From assembly GCA_040879385.1 (NCBI GenBank), contig JBBDKM010000057.1:4838-68837 (forward strand): a stretch of DNA of 64,000 nt, read 5' to 3'. Below, one piece after another: positions 11,083 through 41,331 of this stretch. Source of the DNA: Thermoanaerobaculia bacterium (lineage in GTDB: Bacteria; Acidobacteriota; Thermoanaerobaculia; UBA5066; Gp7-AA6). The notes beneath the pieces were generated by a model. The model was not told the origin of the DNA. It searched no databases and saw only the letters and a program-made list of their open reading frames with translations. Position 1 is the first letter of the stretch. Every line of letters starts with the position of its first letter. A program made the translations under genes and the position numbers.

Positions 11083-11271
11083 CAGCGTTCCGCGGCGCGG
11101 ACGGGCTGGCCGTTCTTGTACACGATCCGGCCGCCGGAGACGACGAGCAGAGAGTTGGGGACAGGCGGCGCGCCCGTCCCATCGATGAGTGTGGCACCCC
11201 GGATGGCGATCACCGCGGCCAGGTCGCTCGATCCGCGCAAAGCGGGCACGTTCGGGCGGGCGGGCGAAACG

Positions 11272-20760: not shown

Positions 20761-20876
20761 TCATTCAGGTCTCTTTGATCGGTCCCTCGCGGCGATCGGC
20801 CACAGCGCTCCGTCTTGGATCCGGCGATCCCCTGCCCGACGCGCGTCGACGCAAGCCTGGGATCCGGAATCCGGGC

Positions 20877-21314
20877 CTACCAGCCCTTGATCACCGCGAT
20901 ATCGGGCATCGGATAGTGCTTGACGTTCTGGGTATAGATCTTCCCGCCGGTCGCCGCGGCGGTTGCGGCCAGGATCGCGTCGTTCACGTCGATGCCGTGC
21001 GACGGATGCCAGCGTCGATAGAAGGCTCCCGCCGCATCGACGATCTCGCGCGTCACCGCTTCCGTTCGAAACCGCGACAGGAGCGACAGGGTCGCGGCCT
21101 CTTCGGCGGGGCGCAGGAAGAAGACGACCTCCGCGCGATGGATCGCGCCAGTCCACAACTCGGCGCCGGGGTCCCGCGACAACTTCCGCAGCAAGCGCGC
21201 CGCCTTCGGCTCGCCGCGCAGGTGCCAGATCAGGATGTCGCTATCGACGTACGCGCGCACGCTTGCCCTGCTGGTGCCGCTCGAAGCCGCGTCGAAACGC
21301 CTCCCGCGACTCAC
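20877..21314 (-). CDS. vapC: PIN-domain toxin
   Basis: AYVDSDILIWHL (first acidic residue) and GIDVNDAILAATA (PIN motif). True start probably GTG near 21257 (VRAYVD...). Confidence 0.8.
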   Translation of the reverse strand: MSRGRRFDAASSGTSRASVRAYVDSDILIWHLRGEPKAARLLRKLSRDPGAELWTGAIHRAEVVFFLRPAEEAATLSLLSRFRTEAVTREIVDAAGAFYRRWHPSHGIDVNDAILAATAAATGGKIYTQNVKHYPMPDIAVIKGW

Positions 21315-22431: not shown

Positions 22432-23197
22432 GGATCACTGGGACCCCGATCGGTACGCGCGCTTCGCGGCCGAGCGCCGGCAGCCGTTTCTCGATCTCCT
22501 CGCGCTCGTCTCGCCGATCCCGGGGGGCCGAGCGGTCGACCTCGGCTGCGGCACGGGAGAGCTCACGCGGGAGCTGCACCAGCGGACCGCCGCCGCGGAG
22601 ACGCTCGGAGTCGACTCCTCGCCGGCCATGCTCGCGAAGTCCGAGCCGTACGCGGGCGGCGGCGTCCGGTTCGAGCCGGGAGACATCGGGACCTTCGCGC
22701 CCGAGCGGATGTTCGACCTCGTGTTCTCCAGCGCCGCGCTCCACTGGGTCGCCGATCACGACGCGCTGCTGGCCCGGCTGACCCGCGCCGTCGGTCCGGA
22801 CGGCCAGCTCGCCTTCCAGGTGCCCGACAACTTCGACCATCCCTCGCACCGCGCGGCGGAAGAGACCGCTTCGGAGGAGCCCTTCCGCTCCGAGCTCGGC
22901 GGGACGGCGCATCCCCGCAACGTTCTCGCCCCGGAGGCCTACGCGGTGATCCTCGACCGCCTCAGATACGCCGAGCAGACCGTGCGGCTGCAGGTCTACG
23001 GTCAGCGGCTCGCCTCTCGCGAGGACGTCGTCGCCTGGGTGGAGGGCTCGCTCCTCTCGGAGTACCGTCGCCGGCTCTCGCCCGAGCTGTACGCGTCCTT
23101 CGTCGACGAGTACCGGCGGGAGCTCTTTCGCAGGATCCCGGACGAGCGCCCGTACTTCTTTACCTACCGCCGCATTCTCGTCCGCGCGAGGCGATAG
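22432..23197 (+). CDS. tam: Trans-aconitate 2-methyltransferase
   Basis: SQDHWDPDRYARFAAERRQPFLDLLALV...VDLGCGTGELT...LAFQVPDNFDHPSHRAAEETA is collinear with E. coli Tam. No canonical start codon directly after the truA stop (CTG at ~22429, or GTG ~22380 overlapping truA), so the start is uncertain. Confidence 0.8.
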
Positions 23198-23212
23198 GGG
23201 GCTCTACAGCAC

Positions 23213-23403
23213 GTGTCGGCGGCTTCGATCGCCGAGCGTCGTGTCCCGCGCGCGGTACATCTCCCCCATCCCGCCGGCGCCGAGGAAAGGCAGGATCAGG
23301 CCGGGTTCTACAGGACGTCGGCGGATTTCCTCAGCCCGCGCCGAGCGGCCCGAGGATCTCGTAGGGACCGAGACGAGAGCCGGCGGAGAGTGTCACGGAG
23401 GCT
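23213..23403 (-). pseudogene. Scrambled 5' fragment (~35 codons) of a kinase paralog
   Basis: Minus strand: GTG ACA CTC ... [21 protein letters not shown], a ~45-nt insertion, then [25 protein letters not shown], then junk. The GTG overlaps the vapC stop (ccGTGAca). Confidence 0.55.
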
Positions 23404-23821
23404 TATGTTCCTTCGTTTCCTTGCGCGCTGCCCGATTGAGTGCCTCATCGAACGCCGAAAATCGGACCTGACGCGCGCCGGCCCGGTAGAGAGAGAGGTA
23501 GGACGCGAGGTGAAGGCTGTCAAAGCCGCGAAGATGATGCTTCTCGGCAAGATCTCCAGCGCTGCGGTAGACCGCCTCGCTGACCTCGATGGTCAGATAC
23601 CGGGGCCAGTCCCGCTCGAAGTCGTTCCTGGCTCGATCGTACCCGGCGCTCGTGAGTCCTCCCTCGCGTCGCTGGCGGGCGAGTGCCGCCCGCGCTTCGG
23701 CGTAGGCCACGACGGAAGTCGCTACGAGCTCGGCGCGATCCACGAGCTCCCGAATCAGGGCCGACCCTTCCTCCTCGACGTACAGCTTAACGAGGCTGCT
23801 CGTGTCGAGATAACCGATCAA
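23393..23821 (-). CDS. vapC: PIN-domain toxin
   Basis: MIGYLDTSSLVKLYVEEE and GFDSLHLASYLSL (PIN acidic residues). 142 aa. Overlaps the antitoxin by 4 nt. Confidence 0.85.
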   Translation of the reverse strand: MIGYLDTSSLVKLYVEEEGSALIRELVDRAELVATSVVAYAEARAALARQRREGGLTSAGYDRARNDFERDWPRYLTIEVSEAVYRSAGDLAEKHHLRGFDSLHLASYLSLYRAGARQVRFSAFDEALNRAARKETKEHKPP

Positions 23822-24090
23822 CGACGGTCCTCAAGGACCATCTCCGATGTCGCCTTCTTCCCCTTCCGCAAGGCCGTCCTCGCACTTCCCCGAGGTTTGC
23901 CGCCGCTCCAGTTCGCGACCCTTTCGCGGACCAGGATCCACCCCCAACGCGCCTCTTCCGTCTCTTCGATCGGTGTCAGCGCCGCGAGCGGCTCACCCCG
24001 ATCCGTCACGACGATCCGCTCGCCTTCCCCGGCGCGCCTCAAATACTCGCTCAGATGATCCTTGAGGGCCCGGACTCCAATACGTGTCAT
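23818..24090 (-). CDS. Phd/YefM-type antitoxin
   Basis: MTRIGVRALKDHLSEYLRRAGEGERIVVTDRGEPLAALTPI is a typical Phd/YefM/VapB N-terminus. GGAGG 9 nt upstream. Inverted repeat gtggcc-N19-ggccac at 24106-24136 is a plausible operator. Confidence 0.8.
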   Translation of the reverse strand: MTRIGVRALKDHLSEYLRRAGEGERIVVTDRGEPLAALTPIEETEEARWGWILVRERVANWSGGKPRGSARTALRKGKKATSEMVLEDRR

Positions 24091-24249: not shown

Positions 24250-24952
24250 GCTACCGCCGCGCGAGCGCGCAGCCGAAGGCCTTCGTCTCGGCCGGCCGGA
24301 TCGGCTGCCCCGCGAGCAGGGCCTCAATCGCCGATTGCAGGTCCGGAGCGGACAGCTTCGAGGCGATCCGCCCGTGGTAGCGCAGCGTGCCGCTCGAGTC
24401 GAAGAGGAATGCCTCCGGTGTGCGCCGGGCGTCTAGGAGCTCCGGCGATGCGCCCCTCCGGGTTCTTGATGATGTCGAAGGTGTGGCCGTGCTCTCGCGC
24501 GTGAACCCGGGCCTCCTCCGCGGTCTCCAGCGTCCCCGAGTTGACGCCCACGAAGGTCACGCCCCTCTTTGCAAACGCCGTCGCCATGTCCCGGATCAGA
24601 TCGTTGTAGTAGTTGGAGTAGGGACAGATCGTGGATATGAAGAGGATGACGACGGCGCCGTGGGTCTTCCTCGCCTCGGCGAGCGAGAGGCGGGGCCCGT
24701 CGGCTCGCAGGCGTACCAATCAGTATTGTTGATGAGACCGACACCTTGGTCGCGCCGTCCCTCCACGGATCGAAATCGCAGCGGTTCTCGATCGCGCTGC
24801 CGAGGCGCCTGTAGGTGCCCTTCAAATCGCACGAGCCCGGAGACCGACTACAGCCGGTGCGCGATCATGCCGCGACCCGCTGGCGCTGCCAGAACCAGCA
24901 CCGTGACGACGACGGCCAAACGGTAGGAGCCGCCGGACACCATCTCAGCCAT
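24250..24952 (-). pseudogene. TlpA/ResA-like thioredoxin-fold protein (CxxS active site) disrupted by at least 3 frame breaks
   Basis: Segments in three frames: MAEMVSGGSYRLAVVVTVLVLAAPAG (membrane anchor) / FDPWRDGATKVSVSS / HGAVVILFISTICPYSNYYNDLIRDMATAFAKRGVTFVGVNSGT...DIIKNPEG / AFLFDSSGTLRYHGRIASKLSAPDLQSAIEALLAGQPIRPAETKAFGCALARR*. Confidence 0.55.
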
Positions 24953-25020
24953 CCTTCCAGGAGGTGCTTCACCCGGCATGCTTTTCGATCCGCGATTCGC
25001 CGGAGAATCACCGAGCGCCG

Positions 25021-25200
25021 TCATCTCCACCAGCTCGGGCCGACTTCACTGAGGATGAGCCTGCTCGAATCGGTGAGGATCGTATACGCGTAAAACCGCC
25101 CGTCGGGCGTACCTTCGATCGTCAGCGCCAGCACGCGCCCCTGCGTCCTGCCGCGGTCGAAGAAAACACGAGAACGGACACAGCCACTGCGGCTCGCCAG
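25021..25200 (-). pseudogene. Possible relic of the terminal propeller blade of a kinase paralog
   Basis: Minus translation ...RVLALTIEGTPDGRFYAYTILTDSSRLILSEVG resembles kinase C-termini (MMTPDGKSYAYNCSRDLADLFLVTGVR; [12 protein letters not shown]...). Lies directly 3' of kinase 2. Confidence 0.35.
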
Positions 25201-25252
25201 AGGCGGCACCGCACGGCCATAGTCCATTTCCGTCGTTGCACTTTCAAGGCCG

Positions 25253-27790
25253 CTATCGGACACCGGTCACGAGAAACAGGTCCGCCAGGTCCCTCGAGCA
25301 GTTGTAAGCGTAGGACTTCCCGTCGGGCGTCATCATGAGATCGGCATTCCAGATGCCGACCGGGTCCTGCGGCGTGATCGTTTTCCACGGCTCACGCCGG
25401 CCGGTCGAGAGCTCCACCCGAAAGACCCGAAAGGGCAGCTCGTCGATGTTCCACGCATACGCGAAACGGCCGTCTTCGCTCCAGTTCCTCCAGATGTAGT
25501 CGGTCGGCAGGAAGCCTGCGACAGGCCGTCGCTCCCCTCCATCAGTCGGGTAAATCCAGAAGTCGTTGCCCGTTTGCACGACCACGAAATGCCCGTCGGG
25601 GGAAATTGAAGCGCATTCCGCATTCACGCCCTCCAGGGTGACCGCCCGCGGGGGCCCCCCGGCGAGCTCTTGCACATAGAGCCTCCCCCCGTGTCCTTTT
25701 TCATGAGCGCCAAAGAGCAGCCGCCGCCCGTCCTGCGACCATCGGACGTAGAGGCGGTCATACCCTTCGATGGTCCCTCGCTCGAGCAGCCTCTCCTGAC
25801 CCGCGCCAGTGGGAACGAGAACGAGCTGCGCCGGCGGCCCCGCACGAACCACGGCCGCCCATTTCCCGTCGGCCGACAGCTCCGAAGCAAACCCCTCGCC
25901 GAGCTTCTTTGGAGGAGAGCCGTCGCTCCGGCGCAGATAGAAGCCGCCATTCTCATTGTCGAGCAGCATCTTTCCGTCGGCGGAGAGACCCATCGCGTTC
26001 GAGGACCCGAAGATCGTCAGATTCCGCTCTCTCGGTTCGCCCGCGGAACCTGCCCAGACTTCGTATCGGCGACGGTGGACGCCGAGGAGCATTCGTCCGT
26101 CTCTTGAAACGTCTTCCACGGTCAGGCCGTGGGGCATTCGCAGCAGCACGCGCTCCCTGCCCGCGAGGGTCACTGCCCGAAGCGTGCTGCCACCGCCCCG
26201 TTCATCCGTAGCGAACCAGATCTCGTCGCCCGAAGGGCTCCAAGCGAGGCTCCGCACGTCCCATCCCGAGACCGCGCGGCTCACGACCTCCATCTCGTGC
26301 CCGGAGACATCGGTCGCATGGAGGCGGTGCTCTTCAAGGTACGCGATGAGGTCCCCCGCCGGGGAAAAGCGTGAAAGAAAAGAGTGGCCCCGATGAATGA
26401 CCTTCCCAACGGGAAACTCGAGTTGGTCGCCCCGAACCACCATCATCTGCTTGCCGTCGGGGCTCCAATCGGCCCACCGGACATCTTCCGCTATTTCCCT
26501 GGGAGCTCCTCCCGCCAGCGGGGCCGTGGCGAGAGTTCCGCTCACGTAGAACCAGCCCTGGTCGATCTGAATCCTCCCCGTGATGATGGCGAGCTCACCG
26601 CTCGAAGAGAGGGAAACCAGACTCGCATCGGGAAGATCGAGTCTTTGCGACTCGGGAGCCTCAGGTCGCGTCAGGAAGATGCGGGGAGGGTCGCCGTCCC
26701 ATCGAGCGCTGTAAACGATTGTACGGCCGTCGGGTGTAAAGCGGGCTGCGCTGACGAAGCCACTGCGAAACGTGAGCCTCTGAAATGACGGCTGTGAAAG
26801 CGGCGGCTCTTTCCAAAGCATCCTGCCGGCGAGGAGACTCGCCGCGAGGAGGGCAGCCGCGGCGAGCACCTGATTCAGGCCCGTCCTGCGGCGCGGCGCC
26901 GCGGCGAGGGTCCCGCCGGAGCTGGCTTCCGAGAGGTGCCCCCCGATGGTCGCGAGCTCGCGCGCGAGGTCCCTGGTCGAGGCGTAGCGGGCTTCGGGAT
27001 CCTTGGCGAGGCAACGCTCGACGGTCCAGCGCAGCGGCGCTGGCGCTTGCGGGCTGACCGTGGCCATCGGCGCGGGTTCCTCGTTGATGATGGCCGAGAG
27101 CGTTTCCGCTCCGGTCTTTTTCAGGAACGCCCGCTTGCCCGTAGCCATCTCGTAGAGAATCGATCCGAAGGAGAACTGGTCCGACCGGAAGTCGACCAGC
27201 TCCCCGCTCGCCTGCTCCGGCGACATGTAGCCGACCGTCCCCACGATCATCCCGGGGCTCGTGCCCGTCTCCGTCGGCAGATGGGATCCCTCGTCGCTGC
27301 CCGACCCCACGTGCGTCGGCTTCGCCAGACCGAAGTCCAGGATCTTCACCAGCCCATCCTTCGTCACCATCAGGTTTTCGGGCTTCAGGTCCCGATGCAC
27401 GATCCCCGCTTCGTGCGCCTTTGCCAGTCCTTCCGCGATCTGGGTTGCGATCGGCAAGAGCTTCCGGGTCGGGATCGCTCCGCCCAGAAGAAGCTTGCGG
27501 AGCGTCTCTCCTTCGACTTTCTCCATCGCGAGGTAGGAAACGCCGTTTGCCGACCCGATGTCGTACACCGTAACGATGTTCGGGTGGTTCAGGGCCGACG
27601 CCGACCGCGCCTCCTTCTCGAATCGCCTCAGACGCGACGCGTCCAACGAGAGCTCCGAAGGCAGCACCTTGATCGCCACCTCACGATCGAGCCGCGTATC
27701 CCGCGCCCGATACACCTCCCCCATACCGCCCGCACCGAGCGGCGACAGCACCTCGTAGGGACCCAGGTGCGCGCCGATGCGAATGGTCAC
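25253..27790 (-). CDS. Ser/Thr protein kinase fused to TM segment and TolB/PD40-like beta-propeller (paralog 2)
   Basis: [64 protein letters not shown]40-like repeats through to ...MMTPDGKSYAYN. Confidence 0.9.
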   Translation of the reverse strand: MTIRIGAHLGPYEVLSPLGAGGMGEVYRARDTRLDREVAIKVLPSELSLDASRLRRFEKEARSASALNHPNIVTVYDIGSANGVSYLAMEKVEGETLRKLLLGGAIPTRKLLPIATQIAEGLAKAHEAGIVHRDLKPENLMVTKDGLVKILDFGLAKPTHVGSGSDEGSHLPTETGTSPGMIVGTVGYMSPEQASGELVDFRSDQFSFGSILYEMATGKRAFLKKTGAETLSAIINEEPAPMATVSPQAPAPLRWTVERCLAKDPEARYASTRDLARELATIGGHLSEASSGGTLAAAPRRRTGLNQVLAAAALLAASLLAGRMLWKEPPLSQPSFQRLTFRSGFVSAARFTPDGRTIVYSARWDGDPPRIFLTRPEAPESQRLDLPDASLVSLSSSGELAIITGRIQIDQGWFYVSGTLATAPLAGGAPREIAEDVRWADWSPDGKQMMVVRGDQLEFPVGKVIHRGHSFLSRFSPAGDLIAYLEEHRLHATDVSGHEMEVVSRAVSGWDVRSLAWSPSGDEIWFATDERGGGSTLRAVTLAGRERVLLRMPHGLTVEDVSRDGRMLLGVHRRRYEVWAGSAGEPRERNLTIFGSSNAMGLSADGKMLLDNENGGFYLRRSDGSPPKKLGEGFASELSADGKWAAVVRAGPPAQLVLVPTGAGQERLLERGTIEGYDRLYVRWSQDGRRLLFGAHEKGHGGRLYVQELAGGPPRAVTLEGVNAECASISPDGHFVVVQTGNDFWIYPTDGGERRPVAGFLPTDYIWRNWSEDGRFAYAWNIDELPFRVFRVELSTGRREPWKTITPQDPVGIWNADLMMTPDGKSYAYNCSRDLADLFLVTGVR

Positions 27791-28467
27791 GACGAATCCG
27801 CTCCGTCGCGCTCCGCCCCGGTCTCGGTCGATTCGGGAACCGCGAAGATGCGGATCGTCAGGGCAACCGACCCGACCTTGAGCTTGTCGCCGTCGGAGAG
27901 CGGCACCGCGGCCTCGACTCTCTTCGCGTGAAGAAAGGTCCCGTTCTTGCTGCCGAGGTCCTCGAGGGTGGCGCTCTCGTCGGCCACGAAGATGCGGGCG
28001 TGGCGACGCGAGACGCTGCGGTCATCGATGGACACGGCGGCGCCCGGGTCGCGGCCGATGATCGTCTCCCCCGGCTCCAGGGGAATGCGCAGCCGACCGC
28101 GTACCAGCCAGTGCACGGACTTGCGGCCGGAAACGACCGAGCGCTTCCCGGTCGCCTCCTGCGCCGTCCCGGAGAACGCGTAGCCGAAGCGGTGCACCGT
28201 GCGCACGAACTGAGACTCGTGCGCGTCGTCCCCGATCGCCTCGCGCACCTCGGCGAGCAGGCTCGTCACCGTGCCGTCTGAAACGAACGTCTCGGGCCAC
28301 AGGTGTCTGTGGATCGCTTCCTTGGCGACGGCCTTCGGACGATTCGCCAGCAGGAGCTCCAGGAACTGAAACGTCTTCGGCTGCAGGTGAACCTCTTCGC
28401 CGCGCACGAAGAGCTGGCGAGTTTCCGAATCGAGCAGGCACTCCCCGAACCGCACGCGCATCACCAC
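27787..28467 (-). CDS. Transcriptional regulator: OmpR/PhoB-type winged-helix DNA-binding domain plus C-terminal FHA domain
   Basis: N-terminus ETRQLFVRGEEVHLQPKTFQFLELLLANRPKAVAKEAIHRHLWPE...FVRTVHRFGYAF (trans_reg_C). C-terminus GETIIGRDPGAAVSIDDRSVSRRHARIFV...LEDLGSKNGTFL (FHA: GR...SR.H...D.S.NGT). Stop overlaps the kinase-2 start (4 nt). Confidence 0.8.
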   Translation of the reverse strand: MVMRVRFGECLLDSETRQLFVRGEEVHLQPKTFQFLELLLANRPKAVAKEAIHRHLWPETFVSDGTVTSLLAEVREAIGDDAHESQFVRTVHRFGYAFSGTAQEATGKRSVVSGRKSVHWLVRGRLRIPLEPGETIIGRDPGAAVSIDDRSVSRRHARIFVADESATLEDLGSKNGTFLHAKRVEAAVPLSDGDKLKVGSVALTIRIFAVPESTETGAERDGADSS

Positions 28468-28594
28468 CCCCGGAAATAAGCCGGAGATTCCCCGCGAATT
28501 CGCAACGACTCCGGCGCGCCCTGAGCGAGATCTTGATTATCGCGCAAAGGGCATCCGAAACACGGATGACCCGGCGCTCCGAAAGGAGTCGCCC

Positions 28595-29128
28595 ATGTTC
28601 TGCCGCGATGAAGGGTCACGCCACCGCCACTTCGGTACCGTCTTCGTTCTCGTGCTCCTCGCTCAAATCGACGAGGCCCTTGGAGGGGAACCCGGACAGC
28701 CAGTTCAGGTCGCGCGGGCCTCCAACCTTCCCTCGATCGTGGTGCGGGCGGTTCAGGACGCCGCCTCGAAGCTCGCGACCCCGGCCTGCCGGGAGATCTT
28801 CTCCGACTTCCGCGATGTGGGCGGAAACACCCTGCAGAGGAACCTCGATGCGCTGGGCGTGTCCGGCGCGGACTATCTCGGGTGGACCCTCTTCTACGAC
28901 GGCCAGGGAAAGCGGATCTGCGAGTCACGAGGAATCCTTGCCGCGACTTCGCCGGGAAGCCGCGCCGTTTTCGTCTGCACCGAGCAGTTCTCGGCCGTCG
29001 CACACCGGGAGCCAGGCCTGGCGGCGGCCCTGATCATCCACGAGGAGCTCCACTCGCTGGGGCTCGGCGAGCGCCCGCCGGACAGCAAAGCCATCACCGC
29101 GCAGGTGATCGCGAGGTGTGGAAAGTGA
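28595..29128 (+). CDS. Hypothetical protein with HExxH motif (possible small zinc metallopeptidase-like protein)
   Basis: AAGGAG 7 nt upstream of ATG 28595. AALIIHEELHSLGLGE motif. High GC3. No family recognised. Confidence 0.45.
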   Translation: MFCRDEGSRHRHFGTVFVLVLLAQIDEALGGEPGQPVQVARASNLPSIVVRAVQDAASKLATPACREIFSDFRDVGGNTLQRNLDALGVSGADYLGWTLFYDGQGKRICESRGILAATSPGSRAVFVCTEQFSAVAHREPGLAAALIIHEELHSLGLGERPPDSKAITAQVIARCGK

Positions 29129-29853
29129 GCGCGATCGTGAGGCCCCCGCTGCCACCCGCGGCCCGCGCCCTTGCGTCGGGCGGGGAGCTGGAAGGGCCGG
29201 AAGCCCTGCTGGCGCGGGCTTGCGCCATGGGGATCCCGTGGGAGCGACTGCTCCGCCGCGAGATCGCAGCCGAGACGACGCTGCGCGCGTTCTTCGTCGA
29301 GGTGGACGGGAACTGGCCGCTCTGGGCCGCTCTGGCCGCGCTGCCCTTCTGTCCGCTCCAGTCGTGGCGCGTTCGCGACCGGCTCGAGGGGCTCTCCTCG
29401 GAGGCTCGCAGCGTCGGTTGCCCCAGGGCCGCCCGCGCGCTGCGCGCCGTGTTCCGGCACCTCTGCGGCAAGGCGAGCGGCTGCGCCTCGGCGCCGGCCT
29501 TAGCTCGGCACCTCTGGTTCGCCTACCAACGCGTGCTCGTCCTCCAGCACATCGGGCGGGCCGCGCACCGCAGTCACGGCAGCTACGAGGAATGCGTCGC
29601 CTGCGTCACCGCGAAAACCACGTGCTGCCGCGCCGACGCCGAGTGGGCGGTGCGCCGGGAAGACCGCCCCGGGAAGTCTCACCTTCTCGACGACGCCATG
29701 CGCAAGGCCCGCGAGGAGGGATTCGAGATCCCGCACCAGTCGACCGAGGCGCGAGCTTTTCGCCGCCTGCGCAGCGTCGCGCGCTCTTCGCCGCACCTGG
29801 TCCCGCGCGCTCCCGCGCTCCAGAACGGGAACGGTTCGGAGGATCTGGAGTGA
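29125..29853 (+). CDS. Hypothetical Cys-rich protein
   Basis: GTG overlaps the upstream stop (GTGA). Codon GC3 ~87%, consistent with coding. SYEECVACVTAKTTCCRADAEW cysteine cluster. No family recognised. Confidence 0.4.
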   Translation: MSAIVRPPLPPAARALASGGELEGPEALLARACAMGIPWERLLRREIAAETTLRAFFVEVDGNWPLWAALAALPFCPLQSWRVRDRLEGLSSEARSVGCPRAARALRAVFRHLCGKASGCASAPALARHLWFAYQRVLVLQHIGRAAHRSHGSYEECVACVTAKTTCCRADAEWAVRREDRPGKSHLLDDAMRKAREEGFEIPHQSTEARAFRRLRSVARSSPHLVPRAPALQNGNGSEDLE

Positions 29854-30038: not shown

Positions 30039-32981
30039 ATGCGAAGTCTTCACCGATATACCTGGTTCCTGGCCCTCTTTTGCATCCTCGCGGCGACCGC
30101 CGCAACGGCCCAGACGACGGGTGCGATCACGGGAACCGTCAGCGACGCGAGCGGGCAGGGTCTGCCGGGCGTGACGGTCGAAGTCCGGGGGGTCGCTCTC
30201 CAGGGCTCGAAGACCGCCGTCACGGGCCGCAACGGCGAGTACCGGTTCCCCTCCTTGTCTCCCGGCTCGTACACGATCACATTTGCGCTCGCGGGCTTCG
30301 GCAAGACTCAGACGAACGCGCAGGTCTTCCTCGACAAGAACGTCGTCGCGGACGCGACGCTCCAGATCAGTGCGCAGGAAGACATCACGGTCACGGGCGA
30401 GGCGCCCGTCATCGACGCGACGTCGTCTTCCACGGGCACCAACTTTACCGCCGACTTCTTGAAGACGCTGCCCATCGGGCGCGGCTTCCAGTCTGTCGCC
30501 ACGAAGACCCCGGGCGTCATTCAGGGATTCGGCGCCGACGCGACCAACTTCAACGTCCAGGGCGCCACGGGCGCCGAGAACGCCTTCATCATCGACGGCG
30601 TCGATACGACCGAGATCCAGTACGGCCGGCAGGGCAAGGCCGCGCCGAGCGAGTTCATCCAGGAAATCGAAGTGAAAGCGGGCGGCTACTCGGCCGAATA
30701 CGGCCACGCGCAGGGTGGCGTTTTGAATGCGATTACCAAGCAGGGAGGCAACTCCTTCCACGGCGACGTATTCGGCTACTTCGCAGGCCGGCCCGGCGAG
30801 GCCGACTCCGGGAACTTCTGGCAGGCGAAGGACGACAATCTCCAGGCCAAAGCCGACAGCCTGGGGACCGTGCGCGCACAGACCGACCCCATCCGGAACA
30901 CGCTGCGTAACGACTACGGCGCGGATCTGGGGGGGTACTTCATGAAGGACCGCATCTGGTTCTTCGGCGCGTACGACCGCGTGCACCAGGATCAGAAGAA
31001 TTATCTGAACGATCCCGTTGGACACTGCAGCGGCCCATGCGACGCGGGCCCGGGAACCGGAACCCTGACCGGCCAATCGCTGTCGACCGTCGTGGATCAG
31101 GACCTCTTCGCCGGCAAGCTCACGTTCCAGGTGCTGGAAGGTCTCTCGATCGTCGGCTCGATCTTCGGGGACCCGACGACCACGGGGCCGAACCTGGCCA
31201 CGCCGATCGCCGGTGCCGATCCGGGCACGTATCTGGGAACGCTCAAGCAGGGCGGCACGGACTACACCGGCCGGCTGACGGGCGTCGTCAAATCGAGCCT
31301 GCTCTTCGAGCTCCAGGGCGCGCTCCACGCCGAGAAGACCGTGCAGACGCCCGACAACTCGACTGATCGCCGCTTCATCACGGTGACGCCTTCCGGGGTT
31401 CCGGCGACGGGCGGCTTCGGCTTCCACCGGGACCAGAGCTTCAACCGCACGTACTTCCGCACCGCCGCAACTTATTTCGCGAATCTGGCCGGCACGCATG
31501 AGTTCAAGGTCGGCGGCGACTACGCCCATGTCAGCTCCGACAGCAAGCGCGTGTATACGGGGCCCGCGGGAATGAAAGAGACGGTCTTCGTCTACAACAC
31601 GGCGGCAGGCCCCGTCTATCAGCACGAGTACAATGCGATCAACGCGCGCAACGCCACCGGCGACCCGATCGAGGTCGACATAGCGCCGGGCGGCACGGTC
31701 TCCCGCACGAACAACACCGGCGTCTTCGCGCAAGATCGCTGGCAGCTCCTGCCGGAATTGACCCTGAACCTCGGGGTCCGCTGGGAAGACCAAAAGGTCA
31801 AAGACGTCGACAATCGCACGCAGATCCACATCAACGACGAGTGGATGCCGCGTGTCGGTTTTGCGTGGGATTTCGCCGGCGGGGGGCGCTCGCGCCTCTA
31901 CGGCAACTACTCGCGCTTCTACCAGACGATGCCCTCGGACATCAACATCCGCGCCTACGGCCTCGAGGTCACGACGGCGGTCTACAACTTCGACCCGAAC
32001 AGCGCCGTCGGAGACCCGGCCGCGTGCCTGGCGCCATACAGCGTCTGCGCTCCGGGAACGAACCCCGCAAACAAGTTCGGGTCGTCAAGAATCAAGACCG
32101 GCGGGTCCTTCGGTGAGCCCACGCAGCCGGGCCTCCAAGGTCAGTTCTCCGACAACATCACCCTCGGCGTCCAGTACGAAATCGTTCCGAACTTATCGGT
32201 CGGCGTCGAGGCTCTCTACAGAGATCTCGGCCGCGTCGTCGAGGACGGCGGCGTGCTGGATTCCAACGGAGACTTGAATTACTTCATCTTCAACCCGGGC
32301 ACGGTTTTCACTCTTCCGGGGGGCACAGAGGCGGTCGGCGCCGGGATCACGCCGCCGAAGCGTTACTACCGCGCCTTGCAGTTCACCGCCCAGAAGCGCT
32401 TCTCGAACCAGCTGCAGTTCCTCGCCTCGTACGTTTTATCGAAGCTCGAAGGCGACTACGACGGAGTCTTCCAGACCTCGACGGGGCAGCTGGATCCGAA
32501 CATCAACTCGGCCTACGACTACCCCATCTTCCAGCAGAACGCCCGCGGCTACCTGACCAACGACCGCCGGCACGTCGTCAAGCTCGATGGCTCCTACATC
32601 ACGCCGTTCCGCCTGACGCTGGGCCTCTCCGCCTTCTACTACTCGGGCACACCGCTCAACCGGTACGGCTACTACAACGACTACCGCAATTACGAGCTGT
32701 TCCTTCTCCCGCGCGGCACCGCGGGGCGCACCCCGAGCATCTACGACGCGGACCTCCACATCGGGTATCTGCTTCCGCTCGGGCCTGTCGACTTCAATGT
32801 CGGCTTGGACGTTTTCAACGTCCTGAACCTGCAGCGCACGGGCTCGCAGGACCAGCGGTTCGACCTCTCCGGTGGAGACCCTCCGGGCGAGAACCCGGGC
32901 ACGTTAAATCCCAACTACCTGCAGCCGGTCACTTTCACCGGGCGCCGCAACGTGCGGATCTTCGGGAAGGTGTCGTTCTAG
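30039..32981 (+). CDS. TonB-dependent receptor-like outer-membrane protein with N-terminal carboxypeptidase-regulatory-like domain
   Basis: GGAGG 8 nt upstream of ATG. Signal peptide MRSLHRYTWFLALFCILAATAATAQ. TGAITGTVSDASGQGLPGVTVEV (CarbopepD_reg). Plug-like EDITVTG...IDGVD. C-terminal aromatic residue (F). The 1287-aa track ORF is a 5' over-extension. Confidence 0.85.
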   Translation: MRSLHRYTWFLALFCILAATAATAQTTGAITGTVSDASGQGLPGVTVEVRGVALQGSKTAVTGRNGEYRFPSLSPGSYTITFALAGFGKTQTNAQVFLDKNVVADATLQISAQEDITVTGEAPVIDATSSSTGTNFTADFLKTLPIGRGFQSVATKTPGVIQGFGADATNFNVQGATGAENAFIIDGVDTTEIQYGRQGKAAPSEFIQEIEVKAGGYSAEYGHAQGGVLNAITKQGGNSFHGDVFGYFAGRPGEADSGNFWQAKDDNLQAKADSLGTVRAQTDPIRNTLRNDYGADLGGYFMKDRIWFFGAYDRVHQDQKNYLNDPVGHCSGPCDAGPGTGTLTGQSLSTVVDQDLFAGKLTFQVLEGLSIVGSIFGDPTTTGPNLATPIAGADPGTYLGTLKQGGTDYTGRLTGVVKSSLLFELQGALHAEKTVQTPDNSTDRRFITVTPSGVPATGGFGFHRDQSFNRTYFRTAATYFANLAGTHEFKVGGDYAHVSSDSKRVYTGPAGMKETVFVYNTAAGPVYQHEYNAINARNATGDPIEVDIAPGGTVSRTNNTGVFAQDRWQLLPELTLNLGVRWEDQKVKDVDNRTQIHINDEWMPRVGFAWDFAGGGRSRLYGNYSRFYQTMPSDINIRAYGLEVTTAVYNFDPNSAVGDPAACLAPYSVCAPGTNPANKFGSSRIKTGGSFGEPTQPGLQGQFSDNITLGVQYEIVPNLSVGVEALYRDLGRVVEDGGVLDSNGDLNYFIFNPGTVFTLPGGTEAVGAGITPPKRYYRALQFTAQKRFSNQLQFLASYVLSKLEGDYDGVFQTSTGQLDPNINSAYDYPIFQQNARGYLTNDRRHVVKLDGSYITPFRLTLGLSAFYYSGTPLNRYGYYNDYRNYELFLLPRGTAGRTPSIYDADLHIGYLLPLGPVDFNVGLDVFNVLNLQRTGSQDQRFDLSGGDPPGENPGTLNPNYLQPVTFTGRRNVRIFGKVSF

Positions 32982-34173: not shown

Positions 34174-35809
34174 TCACTTCAATCCGCTGACGAGGTAGAG
34201 ATCAGCCAGTGTTCGCTGGTATGAGTAAACATAGGATCTGCCATCATCAGCGATGAAGAAGCTCGTGATGCCCCAAAAGCCGGCAGGGTCGGCCGGGACG
34301 ATCTGTTTCCATAGGCCCCTGTGCCCTGTCGCGACATCGAGGCGGGAGATGCTGAACGTAGTTCCAGTCCTCTCCATGAGATAGACACTACGACTGTCCG
34401 GCGTCCACTGAAGCGGCCGATCGCCCGGATACACTCCCGGGAGAAGCTTCGACTCTCCGCTTTCGACCGAGTACCGAGACAGCCTTCCATCCGGACCGTT
34501 GGCGAATACCCAAAGGCCATCCGGGGAAACAGGCTTCGATGCCCGAATCGGACGTATACCCTCGGGAGTGATCGGTCGAGGCCGGCCACCCGCAAGCTCC
34601 TTCACATAGAGGCGCAGGCCATGTCGGGGTTCTTCACCTGCCACCAGGAGGCGCCGGCCGTCGGGGAAAAACGAGGCACCGCGAAGAGTGAGTCCGTCGG
34701 GCGAAAGGGGCTTCGGCTGCCCCGATTTCGTGGGCACGAGAACGATTTGTCCGGCTGAAGCGTTCGCCCTGGAAACGACCCAGAGCCCGTCGGAAGACAA
34801 AGTGCCGCAGCCTCCGTCGAAGAGTCGGGTCGGAGCCGAGCCATCGGTTCGGCCCAGATAGAGCCGATAGTTCCCTCCGACACCGGCCCCCGACTCGTCG
34901 AAAGTGAAACTTTTCCCGTCTGAAGACAGATCGCACGCGAAGGAGTAGTCGAGCCAAGACAGATCTTTTTCTACGCTTTCGCCAGGTGCAAGACCAGTAA
35001 TTTGCATGCTCGACGTGTGCTCTCGTACGAGAACGCTTCCGTCGCCGGCAACGTCAAGAAGCGTCATGGGCGCCGGACTACGCAACAGAACGCGCTCGTT
35101 CCCCGAAAGGGACACGGCGTAGAGCGTATCTGCGATTCCTTGTCTCGACGCCGTGAACCAGACTTCCCGGCCCTCTCGGGACCAGGCGAGGCCGCTCATG
35201 CTTGTGAAGCCTGAGGCAAGCGTCTTTTTCCCACCTTTGCGATCCACCACCGCGACCGAGCCCCCGTCGTCACCGGGGTCCGGATTGTCCAGGAACGCTG
35301 CCAGATCGCCTCGCGGGGAAACCCGCGGGGAGCGAATCTCTCCTGCCGTCACGTAGAGCACGCTGCCGATGGGGTACTCCATCCGAACCGTCCCTCCCAC
35401 GTTGCGTATGACGAGGAGGCTCGATCCGTCGGCTGCCCAGTCTGCGGCCGTCCGCGATCTGTGTGGCAATCGGCAAAAGCTTCCGGGTCGCAAGCGCTCC
35501 GCCCACGATCAGCTTGCGCAGCGTCTCCCCTTCCACCCTCTCCATCGCGATGTAGGAGAGCCCGTTTTCGGACCCGATGTCGTACACCGTGACGATGTTC
35601 GGGTGGTTCAGCGCCGAGGCCGACCGCGCCTCCTTCTCGAAACGCCTGAGCCGCGAAGCGTCCGACGCCAGCTCCGAAGGCAGCACCTTGATCGCCACCT
35701 CACGCGAGAGCCGCGTGTCCCGCGCACGGTACACTTCACCCATACCGCCGGCGCCCACAGGCGCGAGCACCTCGTAGGGACCGAGACGCGTTCCGCTCGC
35801 GAGGGTCAC
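34174..35809 (-). pseudogene. Kinase-propeller paralog with large internal deletion and frameshift
   Basis: N-terminal 125 aa are intact ([31 protein letters not shown]...LPIATQIA), then an out-of-frame junction into the propeller ([19 protein letters not shown]...), with loss of the catalytic loop, DFG, TM and first blades. Track ORFs 35270..35809 and 34174..35493 are the two pieces. Confidence 0.75.
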
Positions 35810-35813
35810 GCGG

Positions 35814-38375
35814 TTACCGAATCCCGTCCAAGGCGAAGAGGTTCGATGAGTACTCGCTCATTTGGCGGACATAGGACTTCCCGTCTCTCGAGATGACGAC
35901 GGCAGAAATCCAACCACCCGGATCGGGAGAGAACTGCATCCAGGGCTTGCGCTCGCCCGTGGCAGGGTCGAGAAGAAAGACTCCCGGGAACACCGGCCTG
36001 CGAACGAAGAGCCGGCGCCCGTCCTGACTCCACTGGATGGGGAATTCCGGAAGGTGGCGAGACTCGAGTCCGCGGACCGGCTGAGGATCCCCGCCTTCGA
36101 TCGGATAGAGCGACGCCTGCTTCTTTTCATCCATCCCCACGACGAGCTTTCCGTCCGGCGAAACGACGCTGCCGCCAAAATTGGGCAGGTAGACGCCCTG
36201 CGGTGTGATCGGTCTGGGAAGTCCGTCCGAGATGTTCTGAAGGTAGATCCGCGGCTTCGCGCCGGCAGCGTTTGCCGCGAAGACGATCCTCTTCCCGTCG
36301 GGAAGCCAGTTCGCCCAGCCGACGGTGTTCAGACCTCCATTCGGAAGCCGACGGGGCTCGCCCGCCCCCGCTGGCAGCAGATCGATCTCGTCGGCGATTC
36401 CGGTCGACGTCGCGATCACCCAGTTCCCGTCCGGGGAAAGAGCGCGCGCGTAACCCCGGCCGATCAGCACCGGAGGACTCCCCGCCTCGCGGAGGTAGAT
36501 GGTCGAGCTGGTTCCATAGGATTCAATCTCGTTGAAGAGAAGGCGGCTTCCGTCAGCCGACAGGTCCACGGGTTGCGTGCCGGCTAGATGCGAGAGGTTG
36601 CGCTCGCCGGAATCGCCCCGGAGGCGTCCAGAGGCCCTGGAGCGGTTCGTCCCCTTCTCGAGCAGGACTCGACCGGTCCGAGAGATGTCGCGGATCTGGA
36701 AATCGCCCGCCAGCGATGCGAGGAGCCGATCGCGGCCGTTCGGAGTCACCGCGCGGAGCTCGGTTGCACCCCCTTCGATCTTCGCGTACCAGATTTCGTC
36801 GCCGCGCGGAGACCAGGCGAAGAAATCGCAGTCCGCCGCCTGACGAAGCCTTTTGACCTTTCCGTGATGATCGACGAGCGCCAGTCCGCCCGGTTCGATG
36901 AACGCGATCAAGTCTCCCTTCGGAGAGACGCGACAGCCGCGGATCGAGCTCCGGATCTGGGCGGAGGCCCCCCTTTCATAGAGGACCTTTCCGACCGGAA
37001 ACTCGAGACGGTGGTTTCCATCGACCGAACGCACGACGGCCAGGGTCTTCCCATCCGGCGACCAGTCTGCGTCCCACACGTTCTCGAGCAGCTTGCGTGG
37101 AGAGCCACCGGCGAGCGCCGCCTGGGCGAGCGTTCCGGGCGACGTATCTCCGCCATCCTGAAGAAATGCCATCTGCCCGCCCTTAGAGATCGAACAAATG
37201 TCCCTTGCCGGAATGCCGAGTGGCCGGGATTCGGGACTTCCAACCCGCCCCATGAAAAGTTCGTCGCCGTCTTTGCGCCACGCGGCATAGACGAAGGTCT
37301 CGCCGTCAGGGGCAAATCGGGCCGTCATGATCCCCTGCTCCTCGAAAGTCACCTGTCGGAACCGGGGAGAGTCGCCGCCCGGGGCCGGCCGTGGCCACTT
37401 CCAAACGAGCAAGGAGCCGAGGATGACCACGGCCAGGGCGAGAGAGGCGGTCAGGACTTTCTGTCTCCGGAGTCCCAAGCGACTCCGAGGCTCGCCGCGC
37501 CACGCCAGCTCGTCGGACAGATGACCAGACAAACCGACCAGATCGTTCGAGAGATCGCGCGTCGAGGCGTAGCGGCCCTCCGGCTCCTTGGCCAGGCATC
37601 GCTCCACGATCCAGCGCAGCGGCGCCGGCGCCTGCGGAGCGACCTCGGTCATCCGCGGAGGCTCCTCGTTCAAAATCGCCGACAGCGTGTCCACCGCCGT
37701 CTTCTTCTGAAACGCCCGCTTGCCCGTGACCATCTCGTAGACGATCGACCCGAAGGCGAACTGGTCCGAACGGAAGTCCACGACCTCGCCGCTCGCCTGC
37801 TCCGGAGACATGTAGCCGACCGTCCCCACGACCGTCCCCGGGCTCGTCCCCGTCTCGGTCGGAAGATGCGGCCCCTCGTCGCTGCCCGAGCCCACGTGCG
37901 TCGGTTTCGCGAGGCCGAAGTCCAGGATCTTGACCAGGCCATCTTTCGTGAGCATCAGGTTCTCGGGCTTCAAGTCCCGGTGAACGATCCCGGCTTCGTG
38001 CGCCTTGGCCAGGCCTTCCGCGATCTGCGTGGCGATCGGCAACAGTCTCTTCAGAGGGAGTGCGCCGCCCACGAGCAGCTTGCGCAGCGTCTCCCCCGTT
38101 ACCAGCTCCATCGCGATGTAGGAAACGCCGTTCTCCGACCCGATGTCGTGGACCGTGACGATGTTCGGGTGGTTCAGCGCGGAGGCCGAGCGCGCCTCCT
38201 TCTCGAAACGCTTCAGCCTCGACGCATCCGACGCCAGCTCCGAAGGCAGCACCTTGATCGCCACCTCGCGTGAGAGTCGCGTGTCCCGCGACCGATACAC
38301 CTCGCCCATGCCTCCGGCGCCGAGCGGCGAGAGCACCTCGTAAGGGCCGAGACGCGCGCCGGAAGCGAGGGTCAC
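35814..38375 (-). CDS. Ser/Thr protein kinase fused to TM segment and TolB/PD40-like beta-propeller (paralog 3)
   Basis: [62 protein letters not shown]40-like repeats. Only 5 nt from the TBDR-2 stop. Confidence 0.9.
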
Positions 38376-38379
38376 GCTG

Positions 38380-41331
38380 TCAAGGACTCAGAAAGAGACG
38401 CGAACGGCCGCGCGAAAGAGGCCGCGGGTCCGAGCGACCGGTGACCTCCCCGTACACCACGTTGTCCTGCGCCTGATTGGGATCGTGGATCGTCGCGGGA
38501 TATCCCGCTGGCTGACTGACGGTCCACTCGTCGTTTCGGAAAGTCGCGATCTGCTTGTCGAAGACGTTGAAGAGGTATGCCTGGAGTGTCACGGTCGCAG
38601 GGCCGACGACGACCGGGTACGAGAGCGTGAGGTTGGTCCCCCACAGCGTCGGCAGCCGCCCCGCCGAGCCGCGCGGATCGAGGTAGATGACCGAGCCGTA
38701 GAATTCGTTCAGGTAGCCAGTTCGGTTGAGCGGCGCACCCGACTCGGCAAACGCCTGGAGGCCGATGGAGAGGCGCCACGGCGTTACCCAGTAGCCGTCC
38801 AGCCGGAAGCGGTGAGGTCGGTCGAGGGCGAGAATCCCGTATGCGTTGTGCGACATCTCGGGATAGTCGAAGTCGGCGTTGATGCCGGGCCAGGTCTATC
38901 CATAGGGGCCCTGGTTGACGCCGCCGTCGTAGTTCCCCCGCAAGGACGAGTAGACGTAGCTCGCCTGGAGCCAGAGGCTCGTGCCGATCGACTTGCGCGC
39001 GAGGAGCTCGAGGCCCCGATAGATACGGCTGACCGAAGGGACGGCGGGGCCTGTTGAGGAGCACTGACGCCAGTCGAAATCGAGCCCGTTACACGTCGGA
39101 ATGTCTCCACTGGCGATATCGCCGCTCGAGCCGGGATTCACCAGGCCGCATTGGCTGAAGTTGGTTTCGGGGAAGCTGTAATCGAGATCACAGCGATCCT
39201 CGAGGACGTTGCGTAGGGTGCGGTAGGTCCCCTTCAATCCGACCGTCAGCGTAGGCCCGAGCATCCTTCCCACACCCGCCGTGAGCTCGTCCTGGTACCA
39301 CCCCCGAGCACCGGAGTCCACGGCGTCCCCGAAGGCGCCGCCGCCACCCAGGGCTTCTTCGTGTCCGATCACGTTCTCGTCCTGCGTCACGCTGACAGGG
39401 TCGAAGTTGTAGGTCCTGAAAAACGTTCCCATCCCGAACACCAGCACCGCCGCGACGGTCGGCAGGGCGTAGGAAAAGCGACCGGCAAAAGCGTAGAGCT
39501 TCGTCTCGCCGTTTCGCCAGGGGTCCCAGACGACGCCCAAACGGGGCTGCCACTGGTCGCCGAAGCTCAGGACGGTCTGACCCGCGTAGTTGCGTGTCTG
39601 CTCGCCGTCCCACCGCAGGCCCAGGTTGACTGTCAGACCCGGCGCGGCCTTCCATGAGTCCTGCAGGTAGACGCCGTAGTCCAGAACCCGCGCGCCGAGC
39701 GGACGGCCCGGAACCACCGTTGGGTCGTCGGGACTCACTGCGTAGAAGGAATGTTCGTAGTAGAGCTGGCCGCGCTCGTTTCGGATTCTGACGCGCTGGC
39801 CGCCCGTGAAGAAGTTCAACGCGGTTGTTCGACCGTTCTGATAGTCGCCGCCCAACTTGATCTCGTGGTCGTCCGCGTAGAGCGTGAGCCCGGCGGCGTA
39901 CTGTTGACGTTCCGACGTGCTGTGGTCGTCGACGCCGAAGATCCGGCCGTATCCTCCCGTGATCGAGTTAGGCTCGAACGGAAGGGCGCATGGATCGTCG
40001 GGCGTGCCGCCGGCGCATGTCTGGTCTTCATACCGGATGCCGTCCGGAGGTGTGAGGGCGTTCTCGTTTTTGTGGTACGAGCCCTGGAGCGTCGCGATCG
40101 CCCGGGAGCCGTAGAGCTGCGTGGCGCGAACGCCGAAATCGGTGCCGCCCTGAAACCGCTCGGAGTACCAGGTCGAAGGGTCGGGACTCACGGGCGGCGT
40201 CGCCTCGCCAACACCCAGGCCCTGCCGCGGATCGGCGCCCGCCGCACCCGAGCTCTTTGTCGGGTCGGCGAACACCGTGCCGACGATCGTCGTCGAGCTC
40301 GCCGCGTTCCAGGTCAGCTTCCCGGAGTAGAGGTTGTTCGTCGCATCGAGGGGGAACCGATCCTCCGTCGAAACGTAGGTCGACGATTGCAGCCGCGACA
40401 GCTCACTCTGGATCGTGACACGGTTGTAGGCGCCGAAGAACCACAGTCTGTCCTTGAGAAGGAAGCCGCCCAGGTCGACGCCGTAATCGAATCGCTCGCC
40501 GTCGGCGAGACGCATCTCGGCGATGCCCGAGTCTCCTGGCTTGAGCTCTCTCTCGGCCGCAGTCGACGTCGAGTCGTAGTAGAGAAAGCCGTCGCCGTGA
40601 AACGTGTTGCCTCCCGACTTCGTGATCACGTTGATGACGCCGCCGAGCGCCCGGCACTCGGCCTGGTAGCCTCCTGTCTTGACCTCGACCTCCTGCACGA
40701 ACTCGTTGTTGATCGCCTTGCCCTGAACTCCCTTGAAGACGTTCGTCGTGTTGACGCCGTCGATGATCCACTGGTTCTCGGCGGAGGTCGCGCCGTAAAC
40801 GGTCAACGCCAGCGAGCGGCCCTCCGTGGTGCCGCGATCGGTCGAGACACCGGGGTTCGACTTCACGATGTCTGCGTAGTTGCGGGCCGTCGGCAAATGC
40901 GAGATCACGCCGCTCGTGTAGTTCGTGCCGGTCGTGGTCGAAGTCGAGTCGATCAACGGAGCCTCTCCCGTCACCGCGATCTGCTCTTCCAGCGCGGGCT
41001 CGAACACCAAGTCGGCGCTCGATGTCGCGTCGAGCGAGACGGTGGCCGACTTCTCGGCGGGACGGAACCCGGGAAGGGCCGCGCGAACCCCGTAAATTCC
41101 CGGCGGAAGGGCCGGGAATCGGAACCGGCCCTCGCTGTCTGTCGCCCCGACGCGCACGCCCTGGAGACTTGCGCTCGACGCCTGCACCGAGACGCCGGGA
41201 AGCGCGCCTCCGGCAGTGTCCCTCACGACTCCCTCGATCAGCCCTGTCGTCTGCGCGACGGCTAAGCTGCAAACGAGCAAGCCGCAGAAAGACAAGCGGA
41301 GCGACGCCGAGAACCTCGGCCTGATTGGCAT
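38380..41331 (-). pseudogene. TonB-dependent receptor-like OMP (CarbopepD_reg type) interrupted by a single in-frame TAG
   Basis: Track ORFs 38896..41331 and 38380..38856 are in the same frame (516 nt apart), separated by one amber codon: ...GNYDGGVNQGPYG * TWPGINADFDYPEMSHNAYGIL... The whole protein is collinear with the 30039..32981 receptor. Could instead be a sequencing error. Confidence 0.7.

Follow-up and report, generated by a model that had tools for sequence, protein, structure and literature searches.

A dedicated transcriptional output is rarely known for bacterial serine/threonine (Ser/Thr) kinases, and the pair EmbR/PknH of Mycobacterium tuberculosis is the textbook exception. 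Here, a comparable arrangement is described for the Acidobacteriota, a phylum that is dominant in soil, has been little studied, and possesses greatly expanded kinase repertoires. The analysis was performed with a stretch of 64,000 nucleotides from a Thermoanaerobaculia bacterium (GenBank assembly GCA_040879385.1, contig JBBDKM010000057.1, positions 4,838 to 68,837 of the forward strand), which is called the window in the following. Its subject is a gene encoding a regulator with a winged helix-turn-helix (wHTH) domain and an FHA domain, and the gene of a membrane receptor Ser/Thr kinase, kinase-2, which overlaps with its 3′-end. The two proteins probably form a cognate pair of receptor kinase and FHA-wHTH regulator that is functionally similar to EmbR/PknH, and the probability of this interpretation was estimated to be about 0.6.

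Like EmbR, the regulator is a single soluble protein with an N-terminal wHTH followed by a C-terminal FHA domain, and the kinase beside it, like PknH, is a Hanks kinase that spans the membrane and has its sensor domain outside the cytoplasm. However, EmbR consists of a SARP-type wHTH, a BTAD and an FHA domain, whereas the regulator has an unconserved linker of 25 residues and no BTAD. In addition, it carries a conserved C-terminal T-x-T tail, the sensor of its kinase is a PD40 propeller, and it belongs to a different phylum, the Acidobacteriota. The best solved matches of its wHTH were effector domains of response regulators (DrrB, 1p2f, 45 bits), while the similarity to the wHTH of EmbR amounted to 7 bits. 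Orthology with EmbR was rejected based on the missing BTAD and this low similarity, and the difference between 45 and 7 bits indicates that the wHTH-FHA regulator is a fusion that is independent of EmbR. With the OmpR/PhoB response regulators it shares the DNA-binding fold including the conserved wing (RT..GY), and phosphorylation-dependent dimerization is the expected logic for both. The regulator nevertheless falls outside the response regulators, since both a receiver domain and a phospho-Asp are missing; an input of Ser/Thr phosphorylation via the FHA domain would replace these. An N-terminal wHTH is also found in CadC, ToxR, and EmbR.

Further precedents cover parts of the arrangement. 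GarA and OdhI, substrate-type partners of Hanks kinases, have a disordered extension with a short conserved Thr motif in addition to the FHA domain, and such a motif was also found in the regulator; yet the motif of GarA (ETTS) is N-terminal and the protein acts on enzymes and not on DNA, whereas the T-x-T motif of the regulator is C-terminal and eight residues away from the FHA domain. The mycobacterial EspM is another fusion of an FHA domain to a DNA-binding module, but its FHA domain is N-terminal and its HTH is different; the regulator reached 24 bits with the EspM model NF052403 (cutoff 550), with the FHA part alone, and this identity was rejected. In ArnA of Sulfolobus, an archaeal protein, the FHA domain is fused to a zinc ribbon. 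Lastly, the FecA/FecR/FecI system is similar in that the regulator gene is located head-to-head or in line with the genes for a TonB-dependent receptor and a membrane transducer, a likeness of gene neighborhood only with respect to the receptor, but no STN domain, anti-sigma factor, or extracytoplasmic function sigma factor is involved in the regulator locus.

Domain Architecture and Conservation of the Regulator

The regulator, kinase-2, and their characteristic elements are located at the following positions of the window:

27787..28467, (-) strand: wHTH-FHA regulator gene; the listed open reading frame (ORF) has 226 aa, the probable start ATG 28461 gives 224 aa
28162..28461, (-) strand: OmpR/PhoB-type wHTH domain, aa 1–100 counted from ATG 28461, Trans_reg_C match
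27841..28119, (-) strand: FHA domain, aa 115–207 counted from ATG 28461, FHA match
27820..27831, (-) strand: conserved S-T-x-T tail motif S211 T212 E213 T214, candidate phospho-acceptor, from family conservation
25253..27790, (-) strand: receptor Ser/Thr kinase 2, 845 aa, from Pkinase and PD40 matches, catalytic motifs, and hydropathy
27787..27790, (-) strand: GTGA overlap of the regulator stop and the kinase start, read from the sequence

An earlier interpretation made from the letters and ORFs of this DNA (the sequence-only reading) had assigned an OmpR/PhoB-type DNA-binding domain and an FHA domain to one protein. Both were clearly recovered with Pfam in the listed ORF, i.e., Trans_reg_C (PF00486) at aa 23–98 (E 2.2e-15, 56.9 bits, cutoff 26.2) and FHA (PF00498) at aa 135–199 (E 6.2e-19, 68.6 bits, cutoff 20.7). 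A match to Yop-YscD_cpl overlapped with the latter and represents the same FHA-like fold. No other domain was found in the profile searches. Specifically, Pfam revealed neither a Response_reg nor a BTAD match, and in the AlphaFold2 model the wHTH begins at residue 1 and about 25 disordered residues separate it from the FHA domain. No NCBIfam model reached its cutoff on the regulator; the response-regulator models matched far under their cutoffs and solely via their C-terminal parts. The GC content at third codon positions (GC3) is 0.88. The homologues have lengths of 218–224 aa and begin with MRVRFG, and therefore the true start is most likely ATG 28461, which lies two codons downstream of the start of the listed ORF.

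In the AlphaFold2 prediction, which was based on an alignment of 52 sequences, the protein folds confidently as two domains, residues 1–100 and 115–207, with a predicted local distance difference test (pLDDT) score of 83–95 for the wHTH. The linker (104–112) and the tail (210–224) are disordered, and the predicted template modeling (pTM) score of the whole model was low (0.49), as expected for beads on a string. The best sequence match in the PDB was EmbR (2fez, E 2e-11). With Foldseek, the FHA part was superimposed on the FHA domain of the mycobacterial FhaA (3poa) with a TMt of 0.92 and a root mean square deviation of 1.1 Å.

A word-indexed search yielded 4123 proteins at E ≤ 1e-5. Among these, the 120 best matches all contained Trans_reg_C and FHA and were 65–99% identical; P0001 (224 aa) is 99% identical. 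An exhaustive search of 50%-identity representatives resulted in 539 clusters at E ≤ 1e-30, nearly all with lengths of 205–240 aa. In the source records the relatives are named just “FHA domain-containing protein” or “DNA-binding wHTH protein”, and a literature search retrieved no study of the BTAD-less wHTH-FHA family. As judged by these similarities, the regulator is a member of a large uncharacterized family.

Residue conservation was counted in 139 full-length family members, which were diverse representatives of 50%-identity clusters. The FHA domain of the regulator contains the canonical set of residues for phosphothreonine (pThr) binding (G136 R137; S151 R152 R153 H154; N173 G174), and the pocket residues align with R312, S326, and N348 of EmbR. 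In the family G136, R137, and H154 are conserved in 100% of the members, S151 and G174 in 99%, and R152 and N173 in 98%, so the pThr pocket is intact. Similar values were obtained for the core and the wing of the wHTH (W55, R73, and T88 100%; G93 and Y94 99%; R87 97%), the conserved wing being R87-T88...G93-Y94. The sequence-only reading had also suggested a search for phosphorylation sites in a Thr-rich linker. This did not hold true, as positions 99–118 contain no conserved Thr and no residue that is conserved above about 42%; instead, the conserved candidate is the T-x-T motif in the C-terminal tail.

The Neighboring Kinase and the Gene Overlap

Kinase-2 has a Pkinase match at aa 12–271 (E 2.7e-46, Pfam) and PD40 repeats. 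All Hanks motifs are present (GAGGMG 19, VAIK 38, HRDLKPEN 132, DFG 152, SPE 190), and thus the kinase is catalytically complete. A single hydrophobic transmembrane helix (aa 304–326) is followed by a PD40/TolB-like beta-propeller region (aa ~330–845). Kinase-2 is a receptor kinase, and its periplasmic PD40 propeller is the presumed sensor. The kinase domains of kinase-2 and kinase-3, a further kinase in the window, are 83% identical and their activation loops almost identical, compared to an identity of 38% in the sensor region.

The overlap of the regulator stop with the kinase-2 start, which had been noticed earlier, was verified as GTGA at 27787–27790. The regulator gene ends with GAT TCG TCG TGA (stop 27789..27787), and kinase-2 begins in another frame with GTG ACC ATT (GTG 27790..27788), 10 nt downstream of a GGAG. 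The GTG start is supported by the N-terminus of kinase-2, which can be aligned residue by residue with the N-termini of paralogous kinases; one of these kinases has an ATG at the equivalent position. The overlap suggests that the two genes are translationally coupled.

A Conserved T-x-T Motif in the C-Terminal Tail

In the otherwise unconserved tail of the family members T212 is conserved in 83% and T214 in 76% (plus 10% Ser). A T-x-T motif was found in 111 of the 139 tails, compared to a mean of 36 and a maximum of 50 in 500 composition-preserving shuffles, i.e., an about three-fold excess. In 86 tails the motif begins exactly eight residues past R204, the end of the last FHA strand. The tail motif in the window, ESTETGA, resembles the activation loops of kinase-2 and kinase-3, and in the sampled loci all kinases located directly downstream of a regulator gene have an activation loop with T-x-T (window, L001b, L027a, L027c, L030; related loci are designated with L and a number).

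The fold matches of the FHA domain include structurally solved precedents for binding of a phosphorylated tail by an FHA domain, both in cis (GarA/OdhI) and in trans (DgcB and MDC1). The termini of FHA domains are normally opposite to the pThr-binding loops. Binding in trans is preferred for the regulator on general structural grounds, because a distance of eight residues would hardly be enough to reach from the C-terminus of the FHA domain to its pThr loops.

Gene Order of Regulator and Kinase in Related Loci

A kinase gene downstream on the same strand, at a distance of at most 250 bp or overlapping, was found at eight regulator genes (window, L001 twice, L007, L027 twice, L030, L031). At one of the two L001 pairs the kinase is reduced to a remnant of 33 aa, and in L030 three kinases follow the regulator gene. 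The overlap of 4 bp is present in three loci, the window, L027 (2482/2479), and L031 (16069/16066). The same-strand order of regulator and then kinase is thus found again both in paralogues and in orthologues down to about 45% identity. In six further loci (L003, L004, L005, L024, L029, L033) the kinase is located one or two genes downstream, and the genes in between often encode a TonB-dependent receptor with the domains CarboxypepD_reg/Plug/OMP_b-brl_4. In loci similar to those of Vicinamibacteria the kinase is convergent (L006) or divergent at a distance of about 0.9 kb (L009–L012). Altogether, eight of the nine immediately adjacent kinases have the same one of four possible configurations, an orientation bias that is suggestive and not phylogenetically independent. 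The proposal of the sequence-only reading that kinase and FHA regulator are a signaling pair is therefore supported by the conserved pocket, the recurring order, and the catalytically complete kinase, but not in the sense of an obligate adjacency.

Two or three paralogous wHTH-FHA regulator genes per 16 kb were observed in L027, L031, and L032. Some of them are split or truncated, e.g., 1830–2482 in L027 (split or truncated) and 15581–16069 in L031, which is FHA-only, and one conserved copy is located between purL and truA and has no neighboring kinase.

The Divergent Operon and the Upstream Region

The regulator gene is separated by a short intergenic region from a divergent operon of three genes:

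28468..28594: divergent intergenic region, 127 bp, with conserved blocks upstream of orthologous regulator genes
28535–28545: conserved block GCGCGATAATC, plausible -10 element
28503–28511: conserved block GAGTCGTTG
28470–28484: conserved block CCGGCTTATTTCCGG
28595..29128, (+) strand: orf177, divergent small gene, HEELH (HExxH) motif, GC3 0.81
29125..29853, (+) strand: orf242, second gene of the divergent operon, ~242 aa, GC3 ~0.9 in frame from 29121 to 29800
30039..32981, (+) strand: third gene of the divergent operon, TonB-dependent-receptor-like outer membrane protein, Pfam CarboxypepD_reg, Plug, and OMP_b-brl_4

The upstream blocks are common to the window, L002, L004, L005, L025, L028, L029, and L030, and their order varies between the loci. 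The third block, also written CCGGCTTWTTTCCGG, overlaps with the ribosome-binding site. For the second and third long blocks, the window contains a single exact match each. A consensus scan of the upstream region did not reveal a sigma-70-like promoter, and a small terminator-like hairpin at 28482–28494 is within chance expectation. Direct repeats are the expected form of OmpR-type operators. Two or three direct repeats of about 11 nt are present in several regulator upstream regions, most clearly in L005, L014, and L027a, and the summed score for 22 upstream regions was 168 compared to an expected value of 147.5. A function of these repeats as operators of the regulator is suggestive only, and autoregulation as well as control of the divergent operon by the regulator are put forward as hypotheses only.

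No family of Pfam, NCBIfam, or PADLOC matched orf177 or orf242. The GTG of orf242 (29125) overlaps with the stop of orf177 (29126–29128), again as GTGA. A head-to-head arrangement of an orf177 homologue and a regulator gene was also found in L002, in L027, and for both copies in L001, and orf242 is conserved in L001 and L002. The ATG of the receptor gene (30039) is preceded by GGAGG, and the N-terminus of the protein is signal-peptide-like. Receptors of the same subfamily (33–35% identity) are encoded beside regulator or kinase genes in L002, L003, L024, and L027.

Kinase and Toxin-Antitoxin Genes in the Surroundings

The statement that toxin-antitoxin modules are located ahead of kinase-1 and kinase relics was found to be correct for the following genes:

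20877..21314: PIN gene, precedes kinase-1
23818..24090 and 23393..23821: Phd/PIN pair, precedes the kinase relic at ~23147..23305

PIN/Phd or PIN/RHH modules are interleaved with tandem propeller kinases in the window (20877..21314, 23393..24090) and in distant relatives alike (L030, 13949–14592; L025, 3851–4081).

A second module, which is devoid of a regulator, is encoded on the (-) strand at 35814..38375, 34177..35809, and 38386..41331. The TonB-dependent receptor gene TBDR-2 carries an in-frame TAG near 38896, is frameshifted at a late position, and ends about 10 nt before kinase-3, which is followed by a decayed copy of the kinase in tandem. With tblastn, no further regulator copy was found in the window upstream of kinase-1 or kinase-3. 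The ORF 38372..39064 was rejected as a regulator; it has no Pfam match and a low GC3 and represents the out-of-frame tail of TBDR-2.

The related locus L001 is JBKJWL010000041, a contig of a Thermoanaerobaculia metagenome-assembled genome, and its DNA is 98.7% identical to the window over 6.5 kb, which confirms that the window is acidobacterial. The two diverge completely beyond window position 20818. At 10217–12431 L001 contains a second module of orf177, regulator, and kinase, at a place that is occupied in the window by a propeller relic and kinase-1. The gene of an AhpC/TSA (thioredoxin-fold) protein at 24324..24719 on the (-) strand has an apparent frameshift near the C-terminus, and an alternative frame gives the expected ...LDARRTPEAFLFDSSGTLRYHGRI; as L001 carries the same lesion, it is probably a shared pseudogene.

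Discussion

It is proposed that the regulator is a soluble OmpR/PhoB-type transcription factor with a pThr-binding FHA domain in place of the usual receiver domain, and we infer the following series of phosphorylation, binding, and DNA-targeting steps. A periplasmic signal would activate kinase-2, which would autophosphorylate the T-x-T of its activation loop, and the FHA domain of the regulator would then dock on the phosphorylated kinase. Kinase-2 would in turn phosphorylate the look-alike T-x-T motif (S211-T212-E213-T214) in the disordered tail of the regulator. The phosphorylated tail of one regulator could be bound in trans by the FHA domain of another, and the resulting dimers would put two wHTH domains on the DNA. 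The dimers would likely target the 127-bp region that is common to the regulator gene and the operon of orf177, orf242, and the TonB-dependent receptor.

Several observations weigh against a cognate pair of this type. A number of close regulator orthologues are flanked by purL and truA and lack a neighboring kinase, and the T-x-T motif was not found in the tails of 28 of the 139 family members. Shuffling of the gene order in nine annotated loci gave p = 0.29 for an immediately adjacent kinase and p = 0.07 for a kinase within two genes; the value for a TonB-dependent receptor within two genes was marginal (p = 0.015). This is a weak test, as it conditions on the high local density of kinases, about 13% of the genes in the loci. 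The nearly identical L001 does not contain window positions 24498..27694 (3.2 kb) and thereby nearly all of kinase-2, while the regulator is intact. At the junction (6525/6526) a CGAG microhomology joins 33 kinase codons to a thioredoxin-fold pseudogene, and the loss of kinase-2 could be a real deletion or a join in a short-read assembly. Lastly, no further copies of the conserved upstream blocks were found in the 64-kb window, so that no regulon is visible, and the 11-nt direct repeats were individually significant in just three of the 22 loci.

Part of these points would fit a many-to-many network in a genome with numerous paralogous kinases, in which the regulator is one node, a dedicated pair does not exist, and the overlap with kinase-2 is local and recent. 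The window contains three intact kinases and three kinase relics, several regulator paralogues per 16 kb are present in L027, L031, and L032, kinase-2 is missing from L001, the permutation test for kinases was not significant, and the similarity of the kinase domains of kinases 2 and 3 is so high that either one could serve the regulator. However, the gene order and the strand recur in lineages that are 45–70% identical, the 4-bp overlaps occur in three independent loci, and a single configuration is shared by nearly all immediately adjacent kinases, and such a network without a dedicated pair is regarded as decidedly unlikely. That the whole region is a defense island is most improbable. In that case, the kinases, the toxin-antitoxin modules, and the strain-variable content would act against phages, similar to PD-T4-6/Stk2, and the FHA protein would be an accessory. 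The kinase domain indeed matches the PADLOC models of PD-T4-6 (E 8e-88) and mad6/Stk2, PIN/Phd modules are interleaved with the kinases, and genes are present or absent in different strains. Yet the kinase matches are confined to the generic Hanks domain (aa 10–300), none of the families in the PADLOC defense-system models matched the regulator, orf177, orf242, or the PIN proteins, and the kinases are transmembrane proteins with periplasmic propellers that have outer membrane receptors as neighbors.

Two other explanations concern the function of the tail. The phosphorylated tail could fold onto the FHA domain of the same molecule and turn DNA or partner binding off, as in the cis switch of GarA and OdhI. 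The fixed distance of the motif from the FHA domain, its position in a disordered extension, and the presence of GarA and OdhI among the best FHA matches are in line with this possibility; with just eight residues from the last FHA strand to the motif it is doubtful that the pocket could be reached, and the site of GarA is N-terminal and much further away from its domain, so that a cis switch is an unlikely solution. Alternatively, the FHA domain might merely tether the regulator to the autophosphorylated kinase, leading to sequestration and release, and the T-x-T motif of the tail would not be a phospho-acceptor. The intact pThr pocket and the T-x-T in the kinase activation loop would suffice for docking, and binding of PknH by the FHA domain of EmbR is a precedent (literature cited in PMC6213207). 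But docking alone leaves unexplained why a T-x-T motif with fixed spacing is conserved in an otherwise drifting tail, and it is considered to be very unlikely. Taken together, the cognate pair with binding of the phosphorylated tail in trans is the preferred interpretation.

A more far-reaching possibility is that the regulator, the propeller kinases, and the CarboxypepD_reg TonB-dependent receptors constitute a previously undescribed trans-envelope signaling module of the Acidobacteriota. The kinase propeller would sense receptor occupancy or a periplasmic ligand, and Thr phosphorylation would pass the signal to the regulator, with the FHA domain and the phosphorylated T-x-T tail as the dimerization switch. 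The regulator would feed back on the receptor operon, and several kinases with near-identical catalytic domains and diverged sensors would converge on one regulator. It is doubtful that all of these parts apply jointly. If they do, the module would be the Ser/Thr-kinase counterpart of cell-surface signaling of the FecIRA type and of two-component systems.

That a transcription factor with an FHA domain can be encoded next to a Ser/Thr kinase is already established as a general principle. The interest of the present case stems from the size of the uncharacterized family, the tail motif as a precise candidate phosphorylation site, and the recurrent link to TonB-dependent receptors. The family represents a minimal version that consists of a DNA-binding domain, a domain for reading pThr, and a short tail that is a candidate for phosphorylation, and it is abundant in the Acidobacteriota, with hundreds of 50%-identity clusters. 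If the switch of tail and FHA domain works as proposed, it would be a second way, besides receiver domains, to make an OmpR-type regulator dependent on phosphorylation, and it would open a tractable route to the signals of propeller kinases and to the control of TonB-dependent receptor genes.

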